NCBI GenBank assembly: GCA_043810165.1
Contig: JBDROJ010000019.1
Coordinates: 17,524-81,523, forward strand
Length of the DNA: 64,000 nt
Source: a bacterium
GTDB taxonomy: Bacteria > Patescibacteriota > Patescibacteriia > Magasanikbacterales > GWA2-37-8
Reading direction: 5' to 3'
Part shown: positions 3,109 through 63,097 of the stretch, piece by piece
Position numbering within the stretch: position 1 is the stretch's first letter
How the letters are laid out: each line of letters opens with the position of its first letter
The notes under the pieces: model-generated
Database searches by the model: none
What the model was told of the DNA's origin: nothing
What the model saw: the letters and a program-made list of their open reading frames with translations, nothing else
Translations under genes and position numbers: made by a program

Positions 3109-4668
3109 ATGCCTGACCAGAATACCACAGACAATAACGAAAACCTGGACGACCAACTTTTATATACACCACCTGATTCTGAAGACCAACAAGATCAAGA
3201 CACAGAAGATCAAAATCAAACCAGCTCCAAGCCTGGTAAAGTTAGTAAACTTCCAGACAAATCAGTAGATCTGGGTGATATAAGTTCCGGACAAAAAAAA
3301 CAAATTGATAGTGAAATTAAAATACCACTGGATGATTTAGAAATACAAGGGAAATTGCCGGCCAGGGCACCTGAAGAATTAGGTGAAGATGAACCACCAG
3401 ATGAGCCAGGAAAACAAAATCAAACAAAACCAGAACCCGAGCAAAACGAACAGGATCAAAATTTGCCCGCTAAAAAACCGGATCATAAAAAATCGGAAAA
3501 GCAAAAATCTGCAGATAAACCTTCAAAATCAGATCAATCCAAAGATCAACAACAAGAAGAAAAACCCGAGCAAGAGCCTGAAGAATCAGAACAAGACGAG
3601 TCAGAAGAGGAAGAAGGAGAAGAACAACCCGATGATGGAGAAGCCGAGCCAAGCGCAGAGCAAGGCCAAGGACAACCAGGAGAACAAAGCGAGCAAGGCC
3701 AAGAAGATGAGCAGGAACCCGAACAAGAAGAAGACGAAGAATCAGATCAAGACGAGCCAGAACAAGATCAGCCAACTGAAGAACCTCCAACCCAACCGGA
3801 TGAGCAACTGCCAAAACCACCAGAACCACATAAGCCAAAACCAAAATCCGAGCCAGAATCTGATTCAAAAAAAGAAGATTTAGAAGATAAAAAGAAAGAA
3901 TTGGAAGAAGATCTAGAAAAAGGAGACCAAGAAAAAAAAGAAGATCGTCAACAACCCGAAACCAAACCAGAAGAAAAATCCAAACCTGTTGAAAAAAAAG
4001 AACCACCCAAGGCCAAACCAAAAAAAAAGAAAAAGCCCAGTACCACCCCACAGCAACTAGATCCAAAACAGCAACAAGATGCACAAACTCAAATGCAACA
4101 ACAGCAACAAGCTGAACGAATGAAACAACAAAAAGAACAAGATGAGGATCAACAACAAAAATCTCAACAACCCGAGCAAGGAGAATATGAGGGACAAGAA
4201 TCCGAACAAGAAGAACAAGAGCAAGGAGAGCAAGAACAAGAAGGAGAGGCAGAAGCACAGGCTGAACAAGCCGAACAAGCTCAAAAATCACTTAAGGAAA
4301 TCAATCAACAAATATTAACAAAAGAAAAACAAATCAAACAGTTAAAAAAATCGATCGCACCAGCGCAAAGAAAAATATGGTTAAAAACATGGGCGCTGAG
4401 AGGTATGAAATTTTGGTATTTCCTAGTTATAATGGCTGAAATTATCCTTGCTATTTCAATTATAGGCTGGGCAGTAATAGAATACGTAGAAAAATACAGG
4501 CAAAAATTAAGTAAACAAATTAAAAAAATTAAAAAAGAATTAAAAGCAGAACAGAAAGCTATTCAAAACACAGTAGACAAGATAAAAGGCTTGCAAAGAG
4601 AACTAAATTTATTATACAGAGAAAAACTTGAAGCTCAAGGCATGTTGATTCCTAATGCACGCATTTAA
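3109..4668 (+). CDS. Highly acidic low-complexity (E/D/Q/K/P-rich) protein with a C-terminal transmembrane helix and coiled coil
   Basis: 519-aa ORF starting 10 nt after the clpC stop. It is extremely compositionally biased (EQ/ED repeats, a KKKKKKP stretch). The C-terminus WYFLVIMAEIILAISIIGWAV is hydrophobic and is followed by a coiled-coil segment. Confidence 0.6.
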   Translation: MPDQNTTDNNENLDDQLLYTPPDSEDQQDQDTEDQNQTSSKPGKVSKLPDKSVDLGDISSGQKKQIDSEIKIPLDDLEIQGKLPARAPEELGEDEPPDEPGKQNQTKPEPEQNEQDQNLPAKKPDHKKSEKQKSADKPSKSDQSKDQQQEEKPEQEPEESEQDESEEEEGEEQPDDGEAEPSAEQGQGQPGEQSEQGQEDEQEPEQEEDEESDQDEPEQDQPTEEPPTQPDEQLPKPPEPHKPKPKSEPESDSKKEDLEDKKKELEEDLEKGDQEKKEDRQQPETKPEEKSKPVEKKEPPKAKPKKKKKPSTTPQQLDPKQQQDAQTQMQQQQQAERMKQQKEQDEDQQQKSQQPEQGEYEGQESEQEEQEQGEQEQEGEAEAQAEQAEQAQKSLKEINQQILTKEKQIKQLKKSIAPAQRKIWLKTWALRGMKFWYFLVIMAEIILAISIIGWAVIEYVEKYRQKLSKQIKKIKKELKAEQKAIQNTVDKIKGLQRELNLLYREKLEAQGMLIPNARI

Positions 4669-20567: not shown

Positions 20568-20752
20568 TCTGTCATTGTGAGGAGTGTAGTGTTACTGTCA
20601 TTGCGAGCGTGGCATTTCTGTCATTGCGAGCGTGGCATTTCTGTCATTGCGAGCGTAAGCGAAGCAATCTCGTCATCATAGAACCAACGGGATTGCTTCG
20701 TCGCTCCACTCCTCGCAATGACAGTGAATCGCTCGCAATGACAAACAAAAAT
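20568..20752. repeat. Nested palindromic repeat element, copy B (three tandem left half-sites)
   Basis: gtcattgtgaggag...ctgtcattgcgagcgtggcatttctgtcattgcgagcgtggcatttctgtcattgcgagcgtaagcgaagcaatctcg...cgggattgcttcg...cctcgcaatgacag...gctcgcaatgacaaac. The 64-aa ORF 20564..20758 lies inside it and is spurious. Confidence 0.8.
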
Positions 20753-41494: not shown

Positions 41495-41616
41495 GACAGT
41501 AAATTATGTCTTCTACAATTCTAACATGTGATAGAAAAAAAATCCATCCGGCTAATCTTAAACAAGTAATTATTGACTTTTTCATCTTTATATGATAACT
41601 TTCTAATTAATCTGAT

Positions 41617-41688
41617 GCCCCTGTAGTGAAATGGATATCACAACGGTCTTCGGAACCGTTGTTGGGGGTTCGAATCCTCCCGGGGGCA
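41617..41688 (+). tRNA. tRNA-Arg, anticodon TCG
   Basis: GCCCCTG/CGGGGGC acceptor, D-arm GTGAAATGGATATCAC, anticodon loop CTTCGGA, T-arm GGGGGTTCGAATCCTCC. Confidence 0.6.
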
Positions 41689-41708
41689 CATTTTTTTAAA
41701 TTACCACT

Positions 41709-41963
41709 ATGATTTGGCAAGACATCGCAATTAGTATTGCTGGCGTTGTATTCGCTCTGGCTTTAATACCACAAGTATATTGTGGATTCAAAGAAAAAAG
41801 CGGGCCAATAAAATTACAGACTTCAATACCAACTTTTGTCGGAATATTTATTATAGTCATTGCCTACATTACTCTAACTTTATATCTCTCAGCTTTTATT
41901 TCTTTTCTTACTGGCATACTTTGGTTCTTATTATTCGTACAAAGAATAATTTACAAAAAATAA
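41709..41963 (+). CDS. Small hypothetical membrane protein (two TM)
   Basis: 84 aa, hydrophobic (IAISIAGVVFALALIP...IFIIVIAYITLTLYLSAFISFLTGILWFLLFV). Confidence 0.4.
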   Translation: MIWQDIAISIAGVVFALALIPQVYCGFKEKSGPIKLQTSIPTFVGIFIIVIAYITLTLYLSAFISFLTGILWFLLFVQRIIYKK

Positions 41964-42245
41964 AAAAGTAATTAATAAAACATCGTGGTATTTATCGCGA
42001 TGTTTTTGATTTTAAAAAAATATTTTTGTCACAACAAACTAAAACTGTGCATAACTTTGCTTGACGCTATTCTCTTTTTGTTAAAAAAGTTTTATAATAT
42101 AGGCAGGTCGAAAAGATTTTTTACATACATGCTTGTCATGTAAAAAGTTTACCAAACAAAAATTTTTCGCCGCGGCGGGAAAAAATTTTTTTATATTCTA
42201 ATAAGTCCTTCTTCTAAAAGGACAGATGGAAGGGAGGTGTATACT

Positions 42246-42392
42246 ATGCCAGCTAAAAAGAAAGTAGCTAAGAAAAAAGTTGCTAAAAAGAAAGTAGCTA
42301 AGAAAAAAGTTGCTAAAAAGAAAGTAGCTAAGAAAAAAGTTGCTAAAAAGAAAGTAGCTAAGAAAAAAGTTGCTAAAAAGAAGAAGAAATAA
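42246..42392 (+). CDS. 48-aa lysine-rich tandem-repeat peptide MPA(KKKVA)9KKKKK, histone-H1-tail-like / nucleoid-associated candidate
   Basis: ATG at 42246 is preceded by GGAAGGGAGG 7 nt upstream. Four copies of a 30-nt unit GCTAAAAAGAAAGTAGCTAAGAAAAAAGTT follow. The TAA stop is at 42390 and is followed by a strong terminator. Not in the ORF track because it is under 60 aa. Confidence 0.6.
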   Translation: MPAKKKVAKKKVAKKKVAKKKVAKKKVAKKKVAKKKVAKKKVAKKKKK

Positions 42393-42405
42393 GCTAATAT
42401 AAGCT

Positions 42406-42437
42406 AAAAAATCCCTCTGTTTAGAGGGATTTTTTTA
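42406..42437. terminator. Bidirectional rho-independent terminator (peptide gene / convergent PHP gene)
   Basis: aaaaatccctct-gttt-agagggattttttt. Confidence 0.6.
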
Positions 42438-42440
42438 TGG

Positions 42441-43706
42441 CTAAATCAATCTGTTTTGCTGTGGTTTGTTAGTGCCATCCGGCAAAACATCTACCTTACC
42501 AAACTCACCATCATAACCTGGACTGACTTTTACTGCACCAGAGCGCATATTTTTTATGGCTAACCAAATATTTTTGTCACTGACATATTTTTTGATTTCT
42601 TTTTCGGTTGCAGATATTAAGATATGGAATTCATTGCCTATATTTTCGATCATTTGCTGGTATTCTTTTTCTACTTTCTTACTCTTTGGGCCAACAGTAA
42701 AAACGCGACCAATCACTTCACGCAAAGGAACAATGTATCGGTGCGGTATAAACTTTTCTTTTTTTATTTGTTCTTCGTCTCTGTCAGCCAATTCATCAAT
42801 TCGGTGCAAAACTCCAACTGTTAATTTCTTTTTACACTTAGGACAAAGATATTTTTCTTTTTTAGTTTGTTTTGGTTTAAAACAAATTTTACAATCACGA
42901 TGACCATCGTGGTGATACTTTCCTTCTTCTGGATAAAATTCAATTGTATATAAAAATTTTTCTTTGTCACCAGTTTCAATAATTTTTTTAATTTCTTGAT
43001 AAGTAATTTCTTTTTCACTGGCAAAAGCAAAAACATTAGCTTCCCTACCTAGATTATACAAACTATGTGCATCTGAATTTGAAATCAAAGTTATGTTATC
43101 TAGAGAACTTAAACAGTGATTCATTGTTGGATCGCTGGATAAACCAGTCTCAATGGCTTTAATATGTGGGGTTAATTCTTCAAAACATTCTTCTAAACTA
43201 TCGTAGCCAGATTTAGAACCAAAAATAGCAAACCAAGGCGTCCAAGCATGGGCTGGAATCATCATCATATCCTTGTCTATTTCCAAAATAATTTCTAATA
43301 TCTGCTTACCACTCAAACCCATAATAGGACGGCCATCTGATCTGATATTCACTCCTCTATCTTCCAATTCTTTATTGAACTTCTCCACCGCCTTGATATT
43401 TGGAGCCAAAAGCATGAGATGTAAACGTCTGCAAGAATCTTTATGCTTGTAAATACAAGAAATTTCAGTCCCTAAAATAAACCTGGTCTCACTACTATCA
43501 TCTTTTAATTTAAAAATGCCTTGATTCTCTTCTACCAAACTATCTTTAATATGCTCAAACCAATCCGGATGAGTAAAATCAGATGTAGATACTATATCTA
43601 TACCTTTGACCTCACAGGCTTTAGCAATTTTAGGCAACTCCAAATCTTTGGAACAAGAACGGGAATATTTAGAATGTATGTGTAAGTCTACTATTTTTTG
43701 AATCAT
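42441..43706 (-). CDS. PHP-domain protein with a C-terminal zinc finger (TIGR00375 / endonuclease-Q-like)
   Basis: N-terminal VDLHIHSKYSRSCS PHP motif with further His/Asp metal ligands (HAWTPW, NSDAHS). CPKCKKKLTVGVLHRIDE with an upstream C..C forms a Cys4 ribbon. 421 aa. Confidence 0.5.
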   Translation of the reverse strand: MIQKIVDLHIHSKYSRSCSKDLELPKIAKACEVKGIDIVSTSDFTHPDWFEHIKDSLVEENQGIFKLKDDSSETRFILGTEISCIYKHKDSCRRLHLMLLAPNIKAVEKFNKELEDRGVNIRSDGRPIMGLSGKQILEIILEIDKDMMMIPAHAWTPWFAIFGSKSGYDSLEECFEELTPHIKAIETGLSSDPTMNHCLSSLDNITLISNSDAHSLYNLGREANVFAFASEKEITYQEIKKIIETGDKEKFLYTIEFYPEEGKYHHDGHRDCKICFKPKQTKKEKYLCPKCKKKLTVGVLHRIDELADRDEEQIKKEKFIPHRYIVPLREVIGRVFTVGPKSKKVEKEYQQMIENIGNEFHILISATEKEIKKYVSDKNIWLAIKNMRSGAVKVSPGYDGEFGKVDVLPDGTNKPQQNRLI

Positions 43707-43710
43707 AATA

Positions 43711-44451
43711 TTATATTTTCCTCTCCTCTGGCCCGGTATATTCAGCTTCTGCTGTACTTAAACGACGTAAACCGTCTTTACTGTTCATCTCTTCGTAGAT
43801 ATGAGCTACCAAACCGGGCACGCGACCAATAATGAAAAATCCTTTGGCCATACGCCAATCAAAACCCATATCAGACATGACTGCACCCATAGCACCATCG
43901 ATATTAAGAGGTAGTCTTTTGGACAAAACCTGATTTAATTCTTTGTGTACTTTTTCAGCTAATTGACAATGTTTGCTATAAATACCAGTTTCTTTGGCTA
44001 CTTCAAACAGAGCTTGGCTACGTGGATCATGTTCTAAAATTTTATGACCATAACCTGGAATACGAATTTTCTGTTGTTTTAATTGCTTGATCAAACCAGC
44101 CACATCCGATTTGGCAACATTTTCTTGAAAAAATTTGGCCGCACCTTCAATAGCACTACCATGTAGTTTACCCATAGACAAGATACCAGCAGCCAAAGCC
44201 GTATGCATGCTATTACCAGTAGAAACAACTGTACGTGCTGTCATGGCCGAAGAAACGCCAATACCATGATCAATAGCAGCTGTAAACAAAGCGTTCATCA
44301 TTCTAGTCTGGTTAGTATCAGGTAACTCACCTTTTAAAACCAAAAAAATAGTTTCTGCAAAACTTTTTTCATGGATCAGATCTTTGAGATCGTAACCACG
44401 AATGGTTTCTTTCCCATCACTTACATTACTAATCGATGTTTTCCATTGCAT
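43711..44451 (-). CDS. Short citrate-synthase-family protein (citryl-CoA lyase-like)
   Basis: 246 aa with the citrate synthase signature IPGYGHKIL and an Asp-containing C-terminal region. Directly downstream of the SCS-like alpha and beta genes. Confidence 0.55.
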   Translation of the reverse strand: MQWKTSISNVSDGKETIRGYDLKDLIHEKSFAETIFLVLKGELPDTNQTRMMNALFTAAIDHGIGVSSAMTARTVVSTGNSMHTALAAGILSMGKLHGSAIEGAAKFFQENVAKSDVAGLIKQLKQQKIRIPGYGHKILEHDPRSQALFEVAKETGIYSKHCQLAEKVHKELNQVLSKRLPLNIDGAMGAVMSDMGFDWRMAKGFFIIGRVPGLVAHIYEEMNSKDGLRRLSTAEAEYTGPEERKI

Positions 44452-44462
44452 ATGGTTTTAAA

Positions 44463-45395
44463 TTATGAATAAGGTTTAGCTAGTTCAACTAAATGTTCGT
44501 ATGTATCGGCTATCATTACTCCTACTTCTGATAAAGCCTTTTCCTTTTCAGCCGCACCTTTACCCCGTTCTACAATCGCACCAGCATGACCGACATTCAT
44601 TCCCTCGGGTAAAACACCCGCAAACTTACCACCTATATATATGGCCAAAGGCTTGGTAAATTCTTGTTTATTTATCAAATCAACAATTTCAAACTCATAA
44701 CTACCACCGTGCTCTCCAAAAATCACTACCACTTTAGTTTGTTCATCTTTTTCAAACATTTTTAACAAGTCAGCGTAAGTAGTACCCATTAATAGATCTC
44801 CACCCACATGAACCACTGTACTTTGGCCTAGACCTGCTTTGCGAATCTGCCAAGCCAATTCATTAGTCATACCGCCGGAACGAGAAATTGCACCCACACT
44901 GCCTGGTTGGAATATTTCTTCAACCAACGGGCCACCCACTACCCCAACTCTGGCTTTGCCCGCTGAAATATACCCTAATGAACTTGGCCCTATAATACGA
45001 ATATCCTTTTCTTTGGCAGCTGCCAGACAATAAGCTGTGTCTTGAATAGGCACTCTTTCCGTCATGATATTTATAACAGAAATGTCATTTTCAATTGCTT
45101 CCATAATTGCCTGCTTGGTGGCAAAAGGAGGCACATAAATGGCGCTGGTGATATTGTGACGAGATTGCTTCGCTTCGCCTGCCTGCCGGACAGGCAGGCT
45201 CGCAATGACAGATAATACTTCGGCCACGGTATCAAAAACCGGCACGCCAAAAACTTGTTCACCGGCTTTGCCAGGGCGCACGCCACCTACCAATTTGGTG
45301 CCATAGTCAAGCATGGCTTGAGTGGCTCGCTGGCCTTCTTTGCCTGTTATACCTTGGATCAAAACTTTTGTATCTTGATTTATCAAAATACTCAT
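44463..45395 (-). CDS. Succinyl-CoA synthetase alpha-like subunit (CoA-binding; citryl-CoA synthetase small-subunit candidate) carrying an in-frame repeat-derived insertion
   Basis: MSILINQDTKVLIQGITGKEG...phospho-His loop MNVGHAGAIV. It aligns with SucD, except for an extra ~17 aa (SLPVRQAGEAKQSRHNI) encoded by a copy of the TGTCATTGCGAGC...GAAGCAATCTCG repeat. Confidence 0.7.
   Translation of the reverse strand: MSILINQDTKVLIQGITGKEGQRATQAMLDYGTKLVGGVRPGKAGEQVFGVPVFDTVAEVLSVIASLPVRQAGEAKQSRHNITSAIYVPPFATKQAIMEAIENDISVINIMTERVPIQDTAYCLAAAKEKDIRIIGPSSLGYISAGKARVGVVGGPLVEEIFQPGSVGAISRSGGMTNELAWQIRKAGLGQSTVVHVGGDLLMGTTYADLLKMFEKDEQTKVVVIFGEHGGSYEFEIVDLINKQEFTKPLAIYIGGKFAGVLPEGMNVGHAGAIVERGKGAAEKEKALSEVGVMIADTYEHLVELAKPYS
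45160..45215. repeat. Repeat element copy D, inserted in-frame inside the SCS-alpha-like CDS
   Basis: Minus-strand sense reads tctgtcattgcgagc-cctgcctgtccggcaggcagg-cgaagcgaagcaatctcgtcac. The family flanks are present around a perfect 8-bp-stem GC hairpin. Local GC is much higher than the surrounding gene. Confidence 0.7.
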
Positions 45396-48477: not shown

Positions 48478-48640
48478 TGTCATTGTGAGGAGCGTAGCGT
48501 TGCTGACATTGCGAGGAGCGTAGCGACGAAGCAATCTCGCCTAGTTATATTGTAACGAGATTGCTTCGCTTACGCTCGCAATGGCAGGAAGACTTGGCTC
48601 GCAATGACAGCAACGCTACGCTCCTCGCAATAACAGATTA
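48478..48640. repeat. Nested palindromic repeat element, copy E
   Basis: ttgtcattgtgaggagcgtagcgttgctgacattgcgaggagcgtagcgacgaagcaatctcg[loop]cgagattgcttcgcttacgctcgcaatggcag...gctcgcaatgacagcaacgctacgctcctcgcaataacag. Confidence 0.8.
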
Positions 48641-55671: not shown

Positions 55672-55758
55672 AATACATAACTAAAAAACTGTCAAGTTTT
55701 TCCCGACAGTTTCTTGTGGATAAGTTATTGGGAGCTATTTCTAAATCTTCATCTTATC

Positions 55759-59212: not shown

Positions 59213-59974
59213 CATGTTCTTCCATTATTACTAATGGCACAGACTATACCTTCATCCTCTCCAACAACAATGGAGGAGGAGCTGACGTGTGATAAGTGAT
59301 ATAAGTTATTTTTTGAACACCTATCTCATCCTTCTGTCTGCCAGAAACAGACATCCAGAATCAGTCGTTACGGGGGTATAATTTATGTTGTCTTAAAAAA
59401 TTCTTCAAAACATCAGAGGTATTAGTTCTCTTTTTGGAATAATTTAATTCCTTGAACTTATCAACCAATTCAGCTGCCTTAACAAATTTTTCTATGGAAA
59501 ATTTTCCTTGTAGAATTTTATTTATTTGAAAAGCAACTAAAACATGTTCTTTTTTGAGAATTATATAAGGCTTCAATAATTTCAAAATCTTAATTACCGA
59601 CTTAAAACCAACTATGGTATATTCGGTCATATCATCATTGCGATCTCTGATATAACCTACTCCTGCAAATGTTTCTTTAAGCCATTCTAAATGACTCTTT
59701 ATGACTCTTTTTATCAGTCTTCTGGTAGAAAACTACGCTGGCACGGATCTGAAATCCATACACATAGTCTTTTCTACGGACTAATTGGAACATTATACAG
59801 CCATCTCCATCTAGAAATCCTGCGATATAAGATTTTGTTGTGGACGAAATTATTGACATAAATCAACCTTCCCACGGCATTGCCCTCTAAAAAGTTCGGT
59901 AAATTTAGTAGGGTTTCACCGTTATGAGTCAGATTTATTGTATCATATTTCTACGATAGAACGCAATGTAGTTT
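59213..59974 (-). mobile_element. Intron (probably group I) in 23S rRNA at the E. coli ~2593 (I-CreI-type) site, carrying a LAGLIDADG homing endonuclease ORF
   Basis: The conserved 23S run ...CAGAACGT|CGTGAGACAGTT... is split. Plus 59201-59212 ends ctgtctcacg and the exon resumes at 59975 acgttctgaaccc. R/S-like elements (CCGTAACGACTGA, GGTATAGTCTG) sit in the 3' part. Confidence 0.7.
59361..59859 (-). pseudogene. LAGLIDADG homing endonuclease (single-motif, I-CreI-like) disrupted by a 10-bp tandem duplication
   Basis: IAGFLDGDGC motif in ORF 59677..59859. A second ORF 59361..59630 continues the protein. Removing one copy of the tandem atgactcttt|atgactcttt (59691-59710) fuses them into one ~163-aa frame (...KKSHLEWLKETFAGVGYIRDRNDDMTEYTIVGF...). 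Confidence 0.7.
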
Positions 59975-60007
<33 letters not shown>

Positions 60008-60020
60008 TGGCGAACAGCCA

Positions 60021-60080
<60 letters not shown>

Positions 60081-61374
60081 CGCCGTCTATATGGACTATC
60101 GGGCGAGATCAGCCTGTTATCCCCGGAGTAGCTTTTATCCGTTGATCTTCCACCTTCCTATGTAGGGTGGTCGGTTCACTAACTTCTGGTTTCCCAACTG
60201 CTCGGGTTGTAGCCCTTGCAGTAAAGCTGGCTTTTGCGTTTGCACGTCCAGCTCGGTTTCCATCCGAGCTAAGCCAACCTTTGTAAACGCCTCCGTTACT
60301 TTTTGGGAGGCATCCGCCCCAGACAAACTACCCACCAGACACTGTCTCCCCTTCCTGATTCAAGGAAGGAAATTAGGTACAAAACTAAACAAGGGTGGTA
60401 TCTCACTGGCGATCCGAAGATCTTCCACCTATACTGAACATGTTTAGCCTTATACCAATATCAAGTTGTAGTAAAGCTTCACGGGGTCTTTTCGTCCGGC
60501 TGTGGGTAACCGGCATCTTTACCGGTCTTGCAATTTCACCGAGTCCCTCGTTGAGACAGTCTCCCCATCGTTACGCCATTCGTGCGGGTCGGAACTCACC
60601 CGACAAGGAATTTCGCTACCTTAGGACGATTATAGTTATCGCCGGCGTTCATCAGCGCTTCAGTTTCCTGCTTTGTCATAAAGACTAACAAGTCGCCTTA
60701 ACGTTCTGACACTGGCCAGGCGTCGCCCCCTATACTTCAGCTTACGCTTTTGCAGGGAGCTGTGTTTTTGATAAACAGTCGCAGGGAGTCTTTTGTTGTA
60801 GCCCCGATTTGAGTCGGGGCGGGCCTTATCCCGAAGTTACGGCCGCTGTTTTGCCGAGTTCCTAAACGAGGGTTATCTCGTACGCCTTGGTCTTCTCGAC
60901 CTACCTACCTGTGTTGGTTTACGGTACGGTTACCTATAGCCTAGCGGTTTCTAGCTTTTCTAGGCATTCTCTTACCTCAAATTGACTCTACCCGAAGGCT
61001 TTGTCTCCATCTTGCGATACGTGTATAACCGAAACACGCTTAAAGATTAAAAATGCGCACTAAAAACCAAACTATAAGCAGTGCAGGAATATTAACCTGC
61101 TGATCCATCGGTTACGCCTTTCGGCCTGGCCTTAGGACCGACTAACCCTGGGATGATTCACGTTGCCCAGGAAACCTTGGGTTTTCGGCGGGCAGGATTC
61201 TCACCTGCCTTTTTGTTACTTATGCCTGCATACTCGCTTCCTAACGCTCCACCAGTCCTCGCAGATCCGGCTTCAACGCAGATAGGAATGTTCCTCTACC
61301 ACGCCTCGACTAAGTCGAGACATTCGCAGCTTCGGTACCATGTTTAGCCCCGTTACATTCTCGGCGCTAAAACT

Positions 61375-61441
<67 letters not shown>

Positions 61442-62012
61442 GAGAATTAAAACCACCTTGCGTGCACTTAACATGGATTTTGGGACCTTAGCTAGCGATC
61501 TGGGCTGTTTCCCTTTTGACTATGAAGCTTAGCCCTCACAGTCTGACTCCTAAGTTTTTGACTACCGGCATTCGGAGTTTGATTGAGGCGGGTATCCCGA
61601 AGGACCCCGACCTCATCCAGTGCTCTACCACCGGCAGGAACACTTAAGGCTAGCCCTAAAGCTATTTCGAGGAAAACCAGCTATTACCGAGTTCGATTGG
61701 AATTTCTCCGCTATCCACAGCTCATCCCCGCGTGTTGAACGGCGCGTGGGTTCGGACCTCCCCCCGATTTTCATCGGGGCTCATCCTGGCCATGGATTGC
61801 TCACTCGGTTTCGGGTCGTGTAACAGAAACTATTGACGCTGGTTAAAACTCGCTTTCGCTGTGCCTACGGACCATAGGCCCTTAAGCAAGCTACTGCTAC
61901 ACACTCGCAGGCTCATTCTTCAATAGGAATACTATCATCCCGACTAAGTCGGGACTTTAGCTCTTTGTAAGCATATGGTTTCAGATACTATTTCATCGCC
62001 CTCAACGGGCTA

Positions 62013-62049
<37 letters not shown>

Positions 62050-63097
62050 ATCACCAAAAGTATTTAGCCTTAGACCATAGTCGGCCTAGATTCAGACAGG
62101 ATTTCACGAGTCCCGCCCTACTCAAGGACACTAACCATGATTGCAATTATTCTTTTCGCGTACGGGGCTTTCACCCTCTTTGACGGCTCTTTCCATAGCC
62201 TTCTGCTAAAAATAATGCTCTCACCTGATTTAACAGAAAATCAGCGTTAGGCCTTACAACACCGTATAAAAAACGGTCTGTTCCTTTAAACTACAGTTCA
62301 AAATCAATTCGAAAATCAATCAATCACCATAGAAACTTTTATACGGTTTGGGCTGTTCCCTTTTCGCTCGCCGCTACTTAGGGAATCTCTTCGATTTCTT
62401 TTCCTCTGGGTACTGAGATGTTTCACTTCCCCAGGTCTTCTTTATATACCTATGTATTCAGTATATAATGCCGCGTAAAACGCAGCGGGTTCCCCCATTC
62501 GGACATTCCCGGATCAAAGGTTGCTTGCCACCTCCCCGAGACTTTTCGCAGGCTGCCACGTCCTTCTTCGTCTTTTGGTGTCTAGGCATCCACCATATGC
62601 TCTTAGTAAAATTGCATACGACAAAAACACTAAATTGTGCTTTTGTTTCATCCTGTACCGAGCCTATTGAAGACAAGCTCCGGTCAGGACGATTTATTTT
62701 GCCTGAATCAAACGGACGAAGTCTACGCTTGCTTGCGCTTGACTTATATTTTGATTCAGGACCCTGGTTGAGTTGTCAAAGTACTTTCAAGTCCTATTCA
62801 TGAACTACCATCTTGACAATGCATGTAAAAGACTGGAAAAAAAGAACCGCTAGTAAGCGGCCTTTAAAACAATAACTGTTTTGAGTTTAACCGCTTGGAT
62901 GAATTGAGTAAAAAATTTGTACTTGTTTTAACATTTTGTTTGCAAGTTATTTTACCCAGAGGTCCAAACTGTTTAAGCTCTGATTGGACGTGGTGTCCAG
63001 ATGCATATCGGGACAATTTCACGTGCTCATAATAATACATTAAAACAAAAAACTTGTCAAGCTGACAAGTTTGCACAGGTGTGGATAAATAATGGAG

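Follow-up and report, generated by a model that had tools for sequence, protein, structure and literature searches.

A Conserved Stand-Alone Lysine-Repeat Micro-Gene with a Structured Leader in Patescibacteria, a Candidate Histone H1-Tail-Like Polyanion Binder

We analysed a micro-gene encoding a lysine-rich peptide of 48 amino acids (aa), MP(AKKKV)8AKKKKK, in a stretch of 64,000 nucleotides (nt) of contig JBDROJ010000019.1 (hereafter, the window). Comparison with orthologous loci indicates that the micro-gene is real and conserved in related Patescibacteria. What appears to be new is its minimal stand-alone form, conserved in a Patescibacteria lineage, the extreme length plasticity of the peptide under a conserved composition, and a conserved promoter and leader architecture with a covariation-supported hairpin absent from Rfam. 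The function that we favour, with roughly even confidence, is that of a minimal polyanion binder resembling a histone H1 tail, which would mainly neutralise and compact DNA and the expression of which would be set by a promoter with a DnaA box and by the leader.

The Micro-Gene and Its Peptide

The letters of positions 41500-42900 were inspected directly for the elements listed in this report. The TATAAT box, the GC palindrome, the small hairpin before the Shine–Dalgarno (SD) sequence, the SD itself, the open reading frame (ORF), the repeats, and the terminator reported in a first-pass annotation were all present as described. The gene consists of the following:

42246-42392, plus strand: coding sequence (CDS) of the micro-gene, 48-aa peptide MP(AKKKV)8AKKKKK
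42252-42382, plus strand: 30-nt tandem array, 4.4 copies, 100% matches, score 262 (Tandem Repeats Finder)
42233-42237, plus strand: SD GGAGG, within GGAAGGGAGG (42228-42237), 8 nt before the ATG at 42246
42406-42437, both strands: bidirectional intrinsic terminator, AAAAAATCCCTCT-gttt-AGAGGGATTTTTTT, read as TCCCTCT-gttt-AGAGGGA followed by T7

As assembled, a 30-nt repeat in 4.4 copies at 100% identity is far beyond chance expectation. Lysine accounts for 35 of the 48 residues (73%), the others being only A, V, P, and M, and the net charge of the peptide is about +35. GGAGG or GGGGG was kept at the SD of the orthologues, with the exception of locus L148 (L-numbers are labels of the loci compared with the window). 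An alternative GTG start at 42237 in the ORF listing, which would give 51 aa, was rejected: this GTG overlaps the SD, and all orthologues start with MP... or MA... at the ATG. The ORF listing contained no reverse-strand ORF of at least 30 aa overlapping the micro-gene.

The terminator, a GC-rich stem-loop with a U-run, is common to the micro-gene and to a convergent gene of the endonuclease-Q (EndoQ) type, and an equivalent (A-run, GC stem, T-run) was found in the orthologous loci for which the 3' flank was available. The description of the locus as a stand-alone micro-gene with a structured leader and a terminator held up, and the data support a monocistronic unit with its own promoter. No record identical in sequence to the peptide, to either neighbour, or to P0074 was found. 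In a phmmer search of 1.84 billion representatives, the only matches were 73 long proteins that have several K-rich stretches, short peptides being invisible to this method.

Orthologues and Selection on the Open Reading Frame

Orthologous loci were reached through the convergent neighbour:

42441-43706, minus strand: convergent gene of the EndoQ/TIGR00375 family

The EndoQ-like gene adjoins the micro-gene in several metagenome contigs (tblastn). It is convergent and syntenic at 50-77% amino-acid identity. Seven loci (L242, L245, L246, L247, L248, L250, and L252) were retrieved purely via EndoQ homologues at 68-73% identity. A convergent lysine-rich micro-ORF was found in all seven EndoQ-retrieved loci that were not cut by a contig end (7/7), and these loci also shared the upstream architecture, the SD, and the bidirectional terminator. 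In L241 (EndoQ at 77% identity), only the C-terminal end of the micro-ORF is present before the contig ends.

We compared the window with L245, the peptide of which, MP(AKKKV)10AKKKKK, is encoded by a different 45-nt unit. The codons differed at 18 of 42 positions, with 18 synonymous and no non-synonymous differences. The orthologues and these exclusively synonymous differences together indicate that the ORF is translated and that the peptide is under purifying selection for amino-acid sequence and composition, in line with the earlier suggestion that the repeat is held at the protein level.

The length of the orthologous peptides was 18, 22, 23, 26, 36, 42, 43, 46/56, 48, 54, 58, 60, and at least 80 aa. 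Variation in the copy number of the repeat, raised in the first-pass annotation, does occur among relatives: repeat number differs by steps of 15-, 30-, or 45-nt units and always in frame. L188 (56 aa) and L224 (46 aa) have an identical leader and a different peptide length. By these comparisons, the length of the peptide drifts freely via in-frame gain and loss of units.

The ORF could be suspected of having arisen by chance in an A-rich tandem repeat or of being an artefact of assembly, as the sequence is of low complexity and four identical 30-nt units are open to mis-assembly. We consider this extremely improbable: the array measures only 131 nt, the ORF, SD, and terminator are kept in orthologues from independent assemblies and samples, and the differences from L245 are all synonymous.

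Gene callers missed the micro-ORF in four of the seven distinct orthologous loci with gene calls, namely L246 (3772-4200), L249, L250/L251, and L252. The uncalled ORFs encode 22-42 aa and have a clear SD and terminator. The 57-aa gene call in L247 probably starts too far upstream, running through the leader.

Promoter and DnaA-Box-Like Element

The orthologues share a fixed order of elements: a DnaA-box-like element, CTA-TTCnnn, TATAAT, AGGTCGAA, a hairpin P1, a hairpin P2, GGAGG, and ATG. The promoter elements of the window are listed below, with A1 denoting the alignment of seven orthologous control-region sequences:

42046-42054, minus strand: DnaA-box-like element TTATGCACA (plus strand reads TGTGCATAA), one mismatch to TTATCCACA; predicted DnaA site
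42067-42075, plus strand: −35-region motif CTATTC / TTCTCT, 17 nt upstream of the −10 box; T38, A39, and T40 invariant in A1
42093-42098, plus strand: −10 box TATAAT, in six of the seven sequences of A1; TATACT in L148

The DnaA-box-like element, TGTGNATAA at about −55, had been overlooked in the first-pass annotation. It lies at about −59 to −51 from the predicted start. The orthologues have C-TGTG[C/G/T/A]ATAAC in the same place, that is, TTAT[C/G/A/T]CACA, varying only at the N of TTATNCACA. The window element agrees with this 9-mer, the DnaA-box consensus of E. coli. Among 30 Patescibacteria micro-gene promoters, an exact box was present in 13 (background 0.0065 per 200 nt) and a box with at most one mismatch in 18 (background 0.077 per 200 nt). 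We infer that DnaA may bind at the box. In L246 (about 4060-4085, minus strand), the DnaA-box-like element is tandemly duplicated (CTGTGCATAACTGTGCATAAC).

Two exact TTATCCACA boxes occur elsewhere in the window, at 55715-55723 and 63080-63088 (both minus strand), each 19 nt upstream of a TTGACA-17-TATnnT promoter. The first precedes an ORF starting MDINLLKSLGFSDKLANIYLALLSLGPSSVRKIAEKTDLNRGTVY, read as helix-turn-helix-like, and the second lies about 400 nt upstream of the 23S ribosomal RNA (rRNA) gene (59937-62616, minus strand). Promoters in this organism may repeatedly carry a DnaA-type box near −60. An origin of replication (oriC) was considered for the boxed region and rejected: only one or two boxes are present, no dnaA or dnaN was found among the ORFs of the loci examined, and the neighbours differ between lineages.

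In the orthologues, CTA-TTCnnn is placed about 11 nt downstream of the DnaA-box-like element and 17 nt from TATAAT. The sole −35 candidate at 17 nt in the window is TTCTCT, a weak match to TTGACA that follows the conserved CTA. The TTGACG noticed earlier is indeed present (42061-42066, 26 nt upstream of the −10 box), but it is not a conserved −35 element, being found only in the window and its three closest relatives, and its distance from the −10 box does not suit a promoter. A sigma-70 consensus scan did not report the promoter of the micro-gene, the −10 box of which is a perfect and conserved TATAAT. Other Patescibacteria groups also have the box and AGGTCGAA, with a TTGCAA-17-TATAAT promoter.

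Structure and Conservation of the Leader RNA

The leader most likely starts at about 42105 and is hence about 140 nt long, half the 280 nt first assigned to it; positions 41977-42006 belong to an upstream 84-aa ORF. The elements of this region are:

41977-42006: terminator of the upstream 84-aa ORF, not part of the micro-gene leader
42105-42112, plus strand: 5' motif AGGTCGAA and predicted transcript start, 5-8 nt after the −10 box
42116-42148, plus strand: hairpin P1, arms 42116-42126 and 42138-42148, invariant loop ATGCTTGT at 42129-42136, from minimum-free-energy folds
42158-42192, plus strand: hairpin or dyad P2, AAAAATTTTT-CGCCGCGGCG-GGAAAAAATTTTTTT, with the palindrome CGCCGCGGCG at 42168-42177
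42205-42223, plus strand: small pre-SD hairpin GTCCTTcttctaAAAGGAC, GTCCTT-cttcta-AAGGAC, lineage-specific

Conservation is highest in AGGTCGAA and in the hairpin with the AUGCUUGU loop, both of which had escaped the first-pass annotation. The GGTCGA core was exact in 11 of the 15 Patescibacteria loci retrieved without use of the motif, against a background of 0.014 per 150 nt (binomial P of about 6e-18, relatedness ignored). The four exceptions differ by one base (GGTTGA, GTCGA, GGTCGG, and GGTCAA), and AGGTCGA was likewise enriched. Matches to GGTCGA in high-GC metagenome contigs were mostly coincidental, lying in an upstream CDS or upstream of the promoter, and were excluded as evidence for the motif.

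The stem of P1 varies among the orthologues and its AUGCUUGU loop is invariant. In 14 sequences, 93.5% of cells pair and seven of nine pairs are changed on both sides, with the caveat that the alignment was fitted to the covariance model; none of 500 shuffles reached the observed level, and slid controls gave 36-56%. The covariance model R1, which combines AGGTCGAA and P1, was built from eight sequences and detected six sequences outside its training set (E = 1e-6 to 1e-9). Each locus gave exactly one match to the model, whereas the rest of the window and about 1.6 Mb of other DNA gave no match.

Folding z-scores were −1.98 for the window leader and ranged from +0.30 to −5.03 for the orthologous leaders. 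RNAalifold applied to MAFFT alignments of whole leaders gave no consensus structure, because hairpins of variable length misalign; P1 was therefore aligned by the covariance model instead. In Rfam release 15, nothing matched the window leader at the gathering score (best E about 0.2-1), and eight orthologous loci gave no leader match at E ≤ 0.05. GGUCGA and AUGCUUGU were checked for a pairing partner or an rRNA mimic in 23S and 5S rRNA and in the whole window; the only find was a single GGTCGA in 23S.

The P1 loop contains an AUG opening a mini-ORF, MLVM-stop (42129-42143). We judged it unlikely to be a conserved upstream mini-ORF and probably incidental to the sequence of the stem. MLV[M/V/L]-stop was found in seven of 15 loci, with 8-30 codons in the rest; no SD precedes it, and its CTT codon never varies at the synonymous site.

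The GC palindrome with T and A runs pointed out earlier is conserved as P2, but in relatives the U-run stands 5' and the A-run 3' of a perfect GC palindrome, the arrangement seen at this position across the orthologues. The tip of P2 is always a perfect palindrome (CGCCGCGGCG, GCCGCGGC, CTCGCGAG, CTCGCGATCGCGAG, ACCCTAGGGT, or TCACAATTGTGA), the central bases of which cannot pair within the hairpin; the significance of single perfect palindromes is weak, 14-mers excepted. P2 is terminator-like, being followed by U7, in the window only. A conserved attenuator, terminator, or riboswitch at P2 was rejected on the ground that the 3' U-tract is not conserved among the orthologues. The small pre-SD hairpin is present in the window as first described, but it is not conserved: an equivalent exists in L131, L242, and L246, and it is absent or different in L208, L219, and L166.

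Conservation is stronger in the promoter, AGGTCGAA, and P1 than in the length or sequence of the ORF, and the leader RNA itself could be the main functional product: a cis element, or a small RNA of about 85 nt that ends at P2. The ORF would then be an accessory, such as a translated spacer modulating RNA stability through its A-rich sequence or its translation. The U7 after P2 in the window, flagged as terminator-like, and the failure of several annotators to call the ORF would fit such a role. We nevertheless hold it to be rather improbable. The ORF is open in every orthologue, always begins with M[AP]x(K)n, and has a correctly spaced SD except in L148; the 18 to 0 ratio of synonymous to non-synonymous codon differences from L245 points to the peptide; the U-tract after P2 is not conserved; and similar ORFs in other phyla have unrelated leaders.

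Comparison with Known Systems

The first-pass annotation had likened the peptide to H1, Hc1, Hc2, and AlgP. This likeness holds for composition, but curated models score far below their cut-offs. The window peptide scored 16.7 bits (E = 0.008) against Hc2/HctB (Pfam PF07382), the gathering threshold of which is 40 bits, and is not a member of that family. For NCBIfam NF038053, with a cut-off of 80 bits, the scores were 10.5 bits (E = 0.5) for the window peptide and 11.3-11.7 for two orthologues. The peptide has the features of the bacterial H1-C-terminal-like class, namely more than 35-40% Lys with the rest Ala, Val, Thr, or Pro, short tandem units, and no globular domain. Since the curated H1-like models score below threshold, the peptide, as judged from its sequence, resembles known bacterial H1-like proteins but belongs to a compositional class only. 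Among small basic ribosomal proteins (bS22, bL37, bTHX, and bL36), no family was found at E ≤ 0.01 in Pfam or E ≤ 1 in NCBIfam.

Hc2 likewise consists of lysine- and alanine-rich pentamer repeats, the number of which varies between strains by in-frame gain and loss (PMC2848022), as do the lysine-rich pentamers here ((AKKKV)8 in the window, (AKKKV)10 in L245). It too is without a globular domain, and its K-rich repeats bind and condense DNA (PMC2848022); the window peptide may similarly bind and condense nucleic acids. Unlike the micro-gene product, Hc2 is 165-237 aa long, is a mosaic of repeat types, and is restricted to Chlamydiae, and its promoter and leader are unrelated.

The proteobacterial H1-like proteins (AlgP/AlgR3, the PhaF C-terminus, and Bordetella/Burkholderia BpH1; NF038053) share K/A/P repeats of low complexity, similar to the H1 C-terminal domain. 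Their binding of polyanions, DNA included, is a property that the window peptide would presumably share; AlgP binds polyphosphate granules (PMC9239181), and the lysine-rich disordered region of PhaF binds RNA and activates translation (PMC12818456). They differ in having KPAA/AAKP-type units, a length of 150-350 aa, and, often, other domains joined to them.

A similar composition is found in the polycationic tails of mycobacterial MDP1/HupB (C-terminus), Streptomyces TopA (lysine repeats), and Ku (PAKKA repeats), for which electrostatic DNA binding or compaction is presumed (PMC10810275, PMC5974015, PMC5714199, PMC3553676). The disordered region of MDP1 (PMC10810275, PMC5974015) and the lysine repeats of TopA (PMC5714199) bind and condense DNA. 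These tails are appendages of folded domains that provide specificity, whereas here the tail is the whole protein. An identical AKKKV module is fused to HU, topoisomerase I, SWIB, and phosphofructokinase (PFK) in other phyla.

Histone H1 tails resemble the peptide in their basic residues (about 40-70%), A/K/P/V/T composition, and disorder, and they neutralise DNA charge, as the peptide would presumably do; the window peptide differs in having neither a winged-helix globular domain nor nucleosomes to act on, and common ancestry is not demonstrable for low-complexity sequence. The leader, for its part, recalls the cspA cold-box 5' untranslated region (5'UTR) and the ribosomal-protein leaders of Rfam, which are also long, have conserved hairpins as well as a conserved motif right at the 5' end, and precede a very small, abundant nucleic-acid-binding protein, as the micro-gene product would also be. 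The window motifs, that is, AGGUCGAA, the AUGCUUGU loop, and the palindromic GC tip, are different and have no Rfam match.

A cationic antimicrobial role was among those first suggested. Given that polycations can make membranes permeable and that Patescibacteria are host-attached, the short, stand-alone gene could encode an exported, polylysine-like peptide that an episymbiotic cell uses against or on its host. Such a role is nonetheless very improbable. The sequence, starting MPAKKK, lacks a signal peptide and a bacteriocin-type leader; none of the adjacent genes is for transport, immunity, or modification; with a period of five residues, Ala and Val would be distributed all around a helix, which would not be amphipathic; and in other bacteria the module is fused to cytoplasmic nucleic-acid enzymes.

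Lysine-Rich Micro-ORFs in Other Bacteria

Genomes of GTDB were scanned for DNA able to encode AKKKVAKKKVAKK, which yielded at least 120 loci in many phyla. Among the matches listed, 51 of the 98 complete ORFs with AKKKVAKKKVAKK were stand-alone, measuring 17-154 aa with at least 90% K/R/A/V/T/P/G. The remaining ones were tails on SWIB, HU, phosphofructokinase, topoisomerase I, ribosomal protein S2, and other proteins. At least eight Patescibacteria-type micro-gene loci (22-83 aa) were among the GTDB matches listed. Stand-alone (A/V/T)KKK micro-ORFs are thus found in many phyla, often unannotated.

A 14-codon ORF, MATKKKAAKKKKKH, was conserved in L126, L136, L139, L144, L145, L159, and L220, which are metagenome contigs with a GC content of about 0.55-0.57. 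This ORF comes with a TTGACA...TATACA promoter of its own, an SD reading GGAAGGGAG, and a strong terminator. Many high-GC soil contigs contain similar polylysine ORFs of 13-21 aa, and polylysine micro-ORFs would seem to be a broad class, for the most part undescribed.

The neighbours of the lysine-rich micro-genes varied between groups; hpf, secA, and murB were named from N-terminal sequences only. In L028, L037, L091, and L106 (other Patescibacteria), a K-rich micro-gene lies directly upstream of secA. In L028 and L037, hpf, the gene of a ribosome hibernation factor, stands between the two and murB is upstream. The micro-gene is beside prfA and prmC in L026 and L097. L097 (CAZJOI010000008.1) is labelled Bdellovibrionales, and its layout, leader, and neighbours match the Patescibacteria-type L210, L162, and L026; the bin label may be wrong. 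The contigs of L123, L141/L177, and L176 appear not to come from Patescibacteria; in them, a lysine-rich micro-ORF (26-57 aa) is located about 90-130 nt 3' of the stop of a gene read as rpmA (L27).

These neighbourhoods bear on a second possible function, that of a polycation associated with the ribosome or RNA. The peptide would then be a lineage-specific, ribosomal-protein-like or hibernation-linked charge shield for rRNA, or an RNA chaperone or translation modulator like the KPAA region of PhaF, and the leader an rRNA-mimic autoregulatory site. Positions upstream of hpf/secA, beside prfA/prmC, and, in the non-Patescibacteria contigs, after rpmA all favour it, as do the DnaA-type box upstream of a promoter about 400 nt before the 23S rRNA gene of the window, the conserved structured leader typical of autoregulated ribosomal-protein genes, and the RNA binding and translation activation by the lysine-rich disordered region of PhaF (PMC12818456). 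On the other hand, no known small ribosomal protein model in Pfam or NCBIfam was matched. The 23S and 5S rRNA of the window contain neither AGGUCGAA with AUGCUUGU nor a P1-like element, a lone GGTCGA in 23S aside. Ribosomal proteins are fixed in length, whereas the peptide varies more than four-fold among close relatives, and synteny in the lineage of the window is with a DNA-repair gene, not a translation gene. On balance, we think this function unlikely, though it is the foremost of the alternatives.

Genomic Context of the Window

The micro-gene is surrounded by a gene for transfer RNA (tRNA)-Arg, the 84-aa ORF, which encodes a membrane protein without a family, and the EndoQ-like gene. The window holds 23S and 5S rRNA genes and six tRNA genes. 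It also encodes a DUF5667 protein, a domain that we take to be typical of Patescibacteria. The closest homologues of the EndoQ-like neighbour are from Candidatus Magasanikbacteria and other Patescibacteria metagenome-assembled genomes. The earlier notion of a reduced genome agrees with this assignment to Patescibacteria, based on DUF5667 and the EndoQ homologues.

Citrate-synthase-like and succinyl-CoA-ligase-like genes (43711-45395, minus strand) adjoin EndoQ, as they do in L242, L245, and L252. Relatives add an ATP-grasp_2/Citrate_bind gene, so that these reduced genomes have a conserved ATP-citrate-lyase-like set. At 20595-20656, Tandem Repeats Finder reported 2.7 copies of a 23-nt unit, CTGTCATTGCGAGCGTGGCATTT, at 100% identity, and a related reverse-complement array, TACGCTCGCAATGACAGCAACAC, in 2.3 copies at 48571-48623, 28 kb away.

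Proposed Function and Its Significance

We favour binding of polyanions because of the composition of the peptide, its sub-threshold H1-like matches, the fusions to nucleic-acid enzymes, and the published binding by K-rich repeats. The peptide is 73% Lys and lacks a hydrophobic face; in the databases it resembles only H1-like DNA-binding families, at scores below threshold; and the (A/V/T)KKK module is fused elsewhere to DNA- and RNA-handling proteins.

In the proposed mechanism, a fold-less and unspecific peptide would bind cellular polyanions electrostatically, chiefly chromosomal DNA. Charge neutralisation would compact the nucleoid of a very small cell, as H1 C-terminal domains, Hc2, and the MDP1 tail do. 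Because too much of a polycation would be toxic, its expression would be kept under tight control. Transcription would proceed from the consensus TATAAT, starting about 7 nt on, and the DnaA box (TTATNCACA) near −55 may couple supply to replication status. The transcript would carry AGGUCGAA, the covarying hairpin with the AUGCUUGU loop, and then a hairpin with an AU stem and a GC tip, which could act in post-transcriptional control or as a stability element. The leader could be the site of an RNA-binding factor or of feedback, analogous to the cspA cold-box 5'UTR or to ribosomal-protein leaders.

Several observations weigh against this mechanism. The choice of DNA as the partner, as opposed to RNA, ribosomes, or polyphosphate, we infer from composition, and the curated H1-like models are far below threshold. 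Peptide length varies (18 to at least 80 aa), and conservation is higher in the leader than in the ORF, so the RNA could matter more than the peptide. In other Patescibacteria groups, GGTCGA is situated about 56 nt downstream of the −10 box, with another type of hairpin after it, so that AGGUCGAA constitutes an independent RNA or DNA signal beyond marking a start site. No complement of AGGUCGAA or AUGCUUGU was found in the leader, the CDS, or 23S or 5S rRNA. Finally, given the two other boxed promoters of the window, the box may mark strong promoters generally instead of coupling to replication.

Lysine-rich H1-like proteins are known from few bacteria. Here the repeat is the entire protein, in an uncultivated, genome-reduced lineage. 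Such ORFs are often missed by gene callers and are nearly invisible to similarity searches and tryptic proteomics, and the class is therefore probably under-counted. The leader motif provides a specific, searchable handle, and the DnaA box a testable regulatory hypothesis. If the peptide is the main counter-ion of DNA or RNA in ultra-small cells, it would bear on how a genome is packed into a tiny volume and on how bacteria control a potentially toxic polycation. More speculatively, and with low confidence, Magasanikbacteria-type and, more loosely, many other Patescibacteria might package or neutralise their chromosome with a fold-less peptide like a linker-histone tail, using dosage coupling through the DnaA box, fine-tuning by an undescribed leader RNA, and rapid length tuning by in-frame repeat slippage, with polylysine micro-proteins of 13-150 aa, a large and for the most part unannotated class across bacteria, forming a general polyanion-buffering system. 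If this were true, the dosage coupling through the DnaA box would parallel histone synthesis in S phase.

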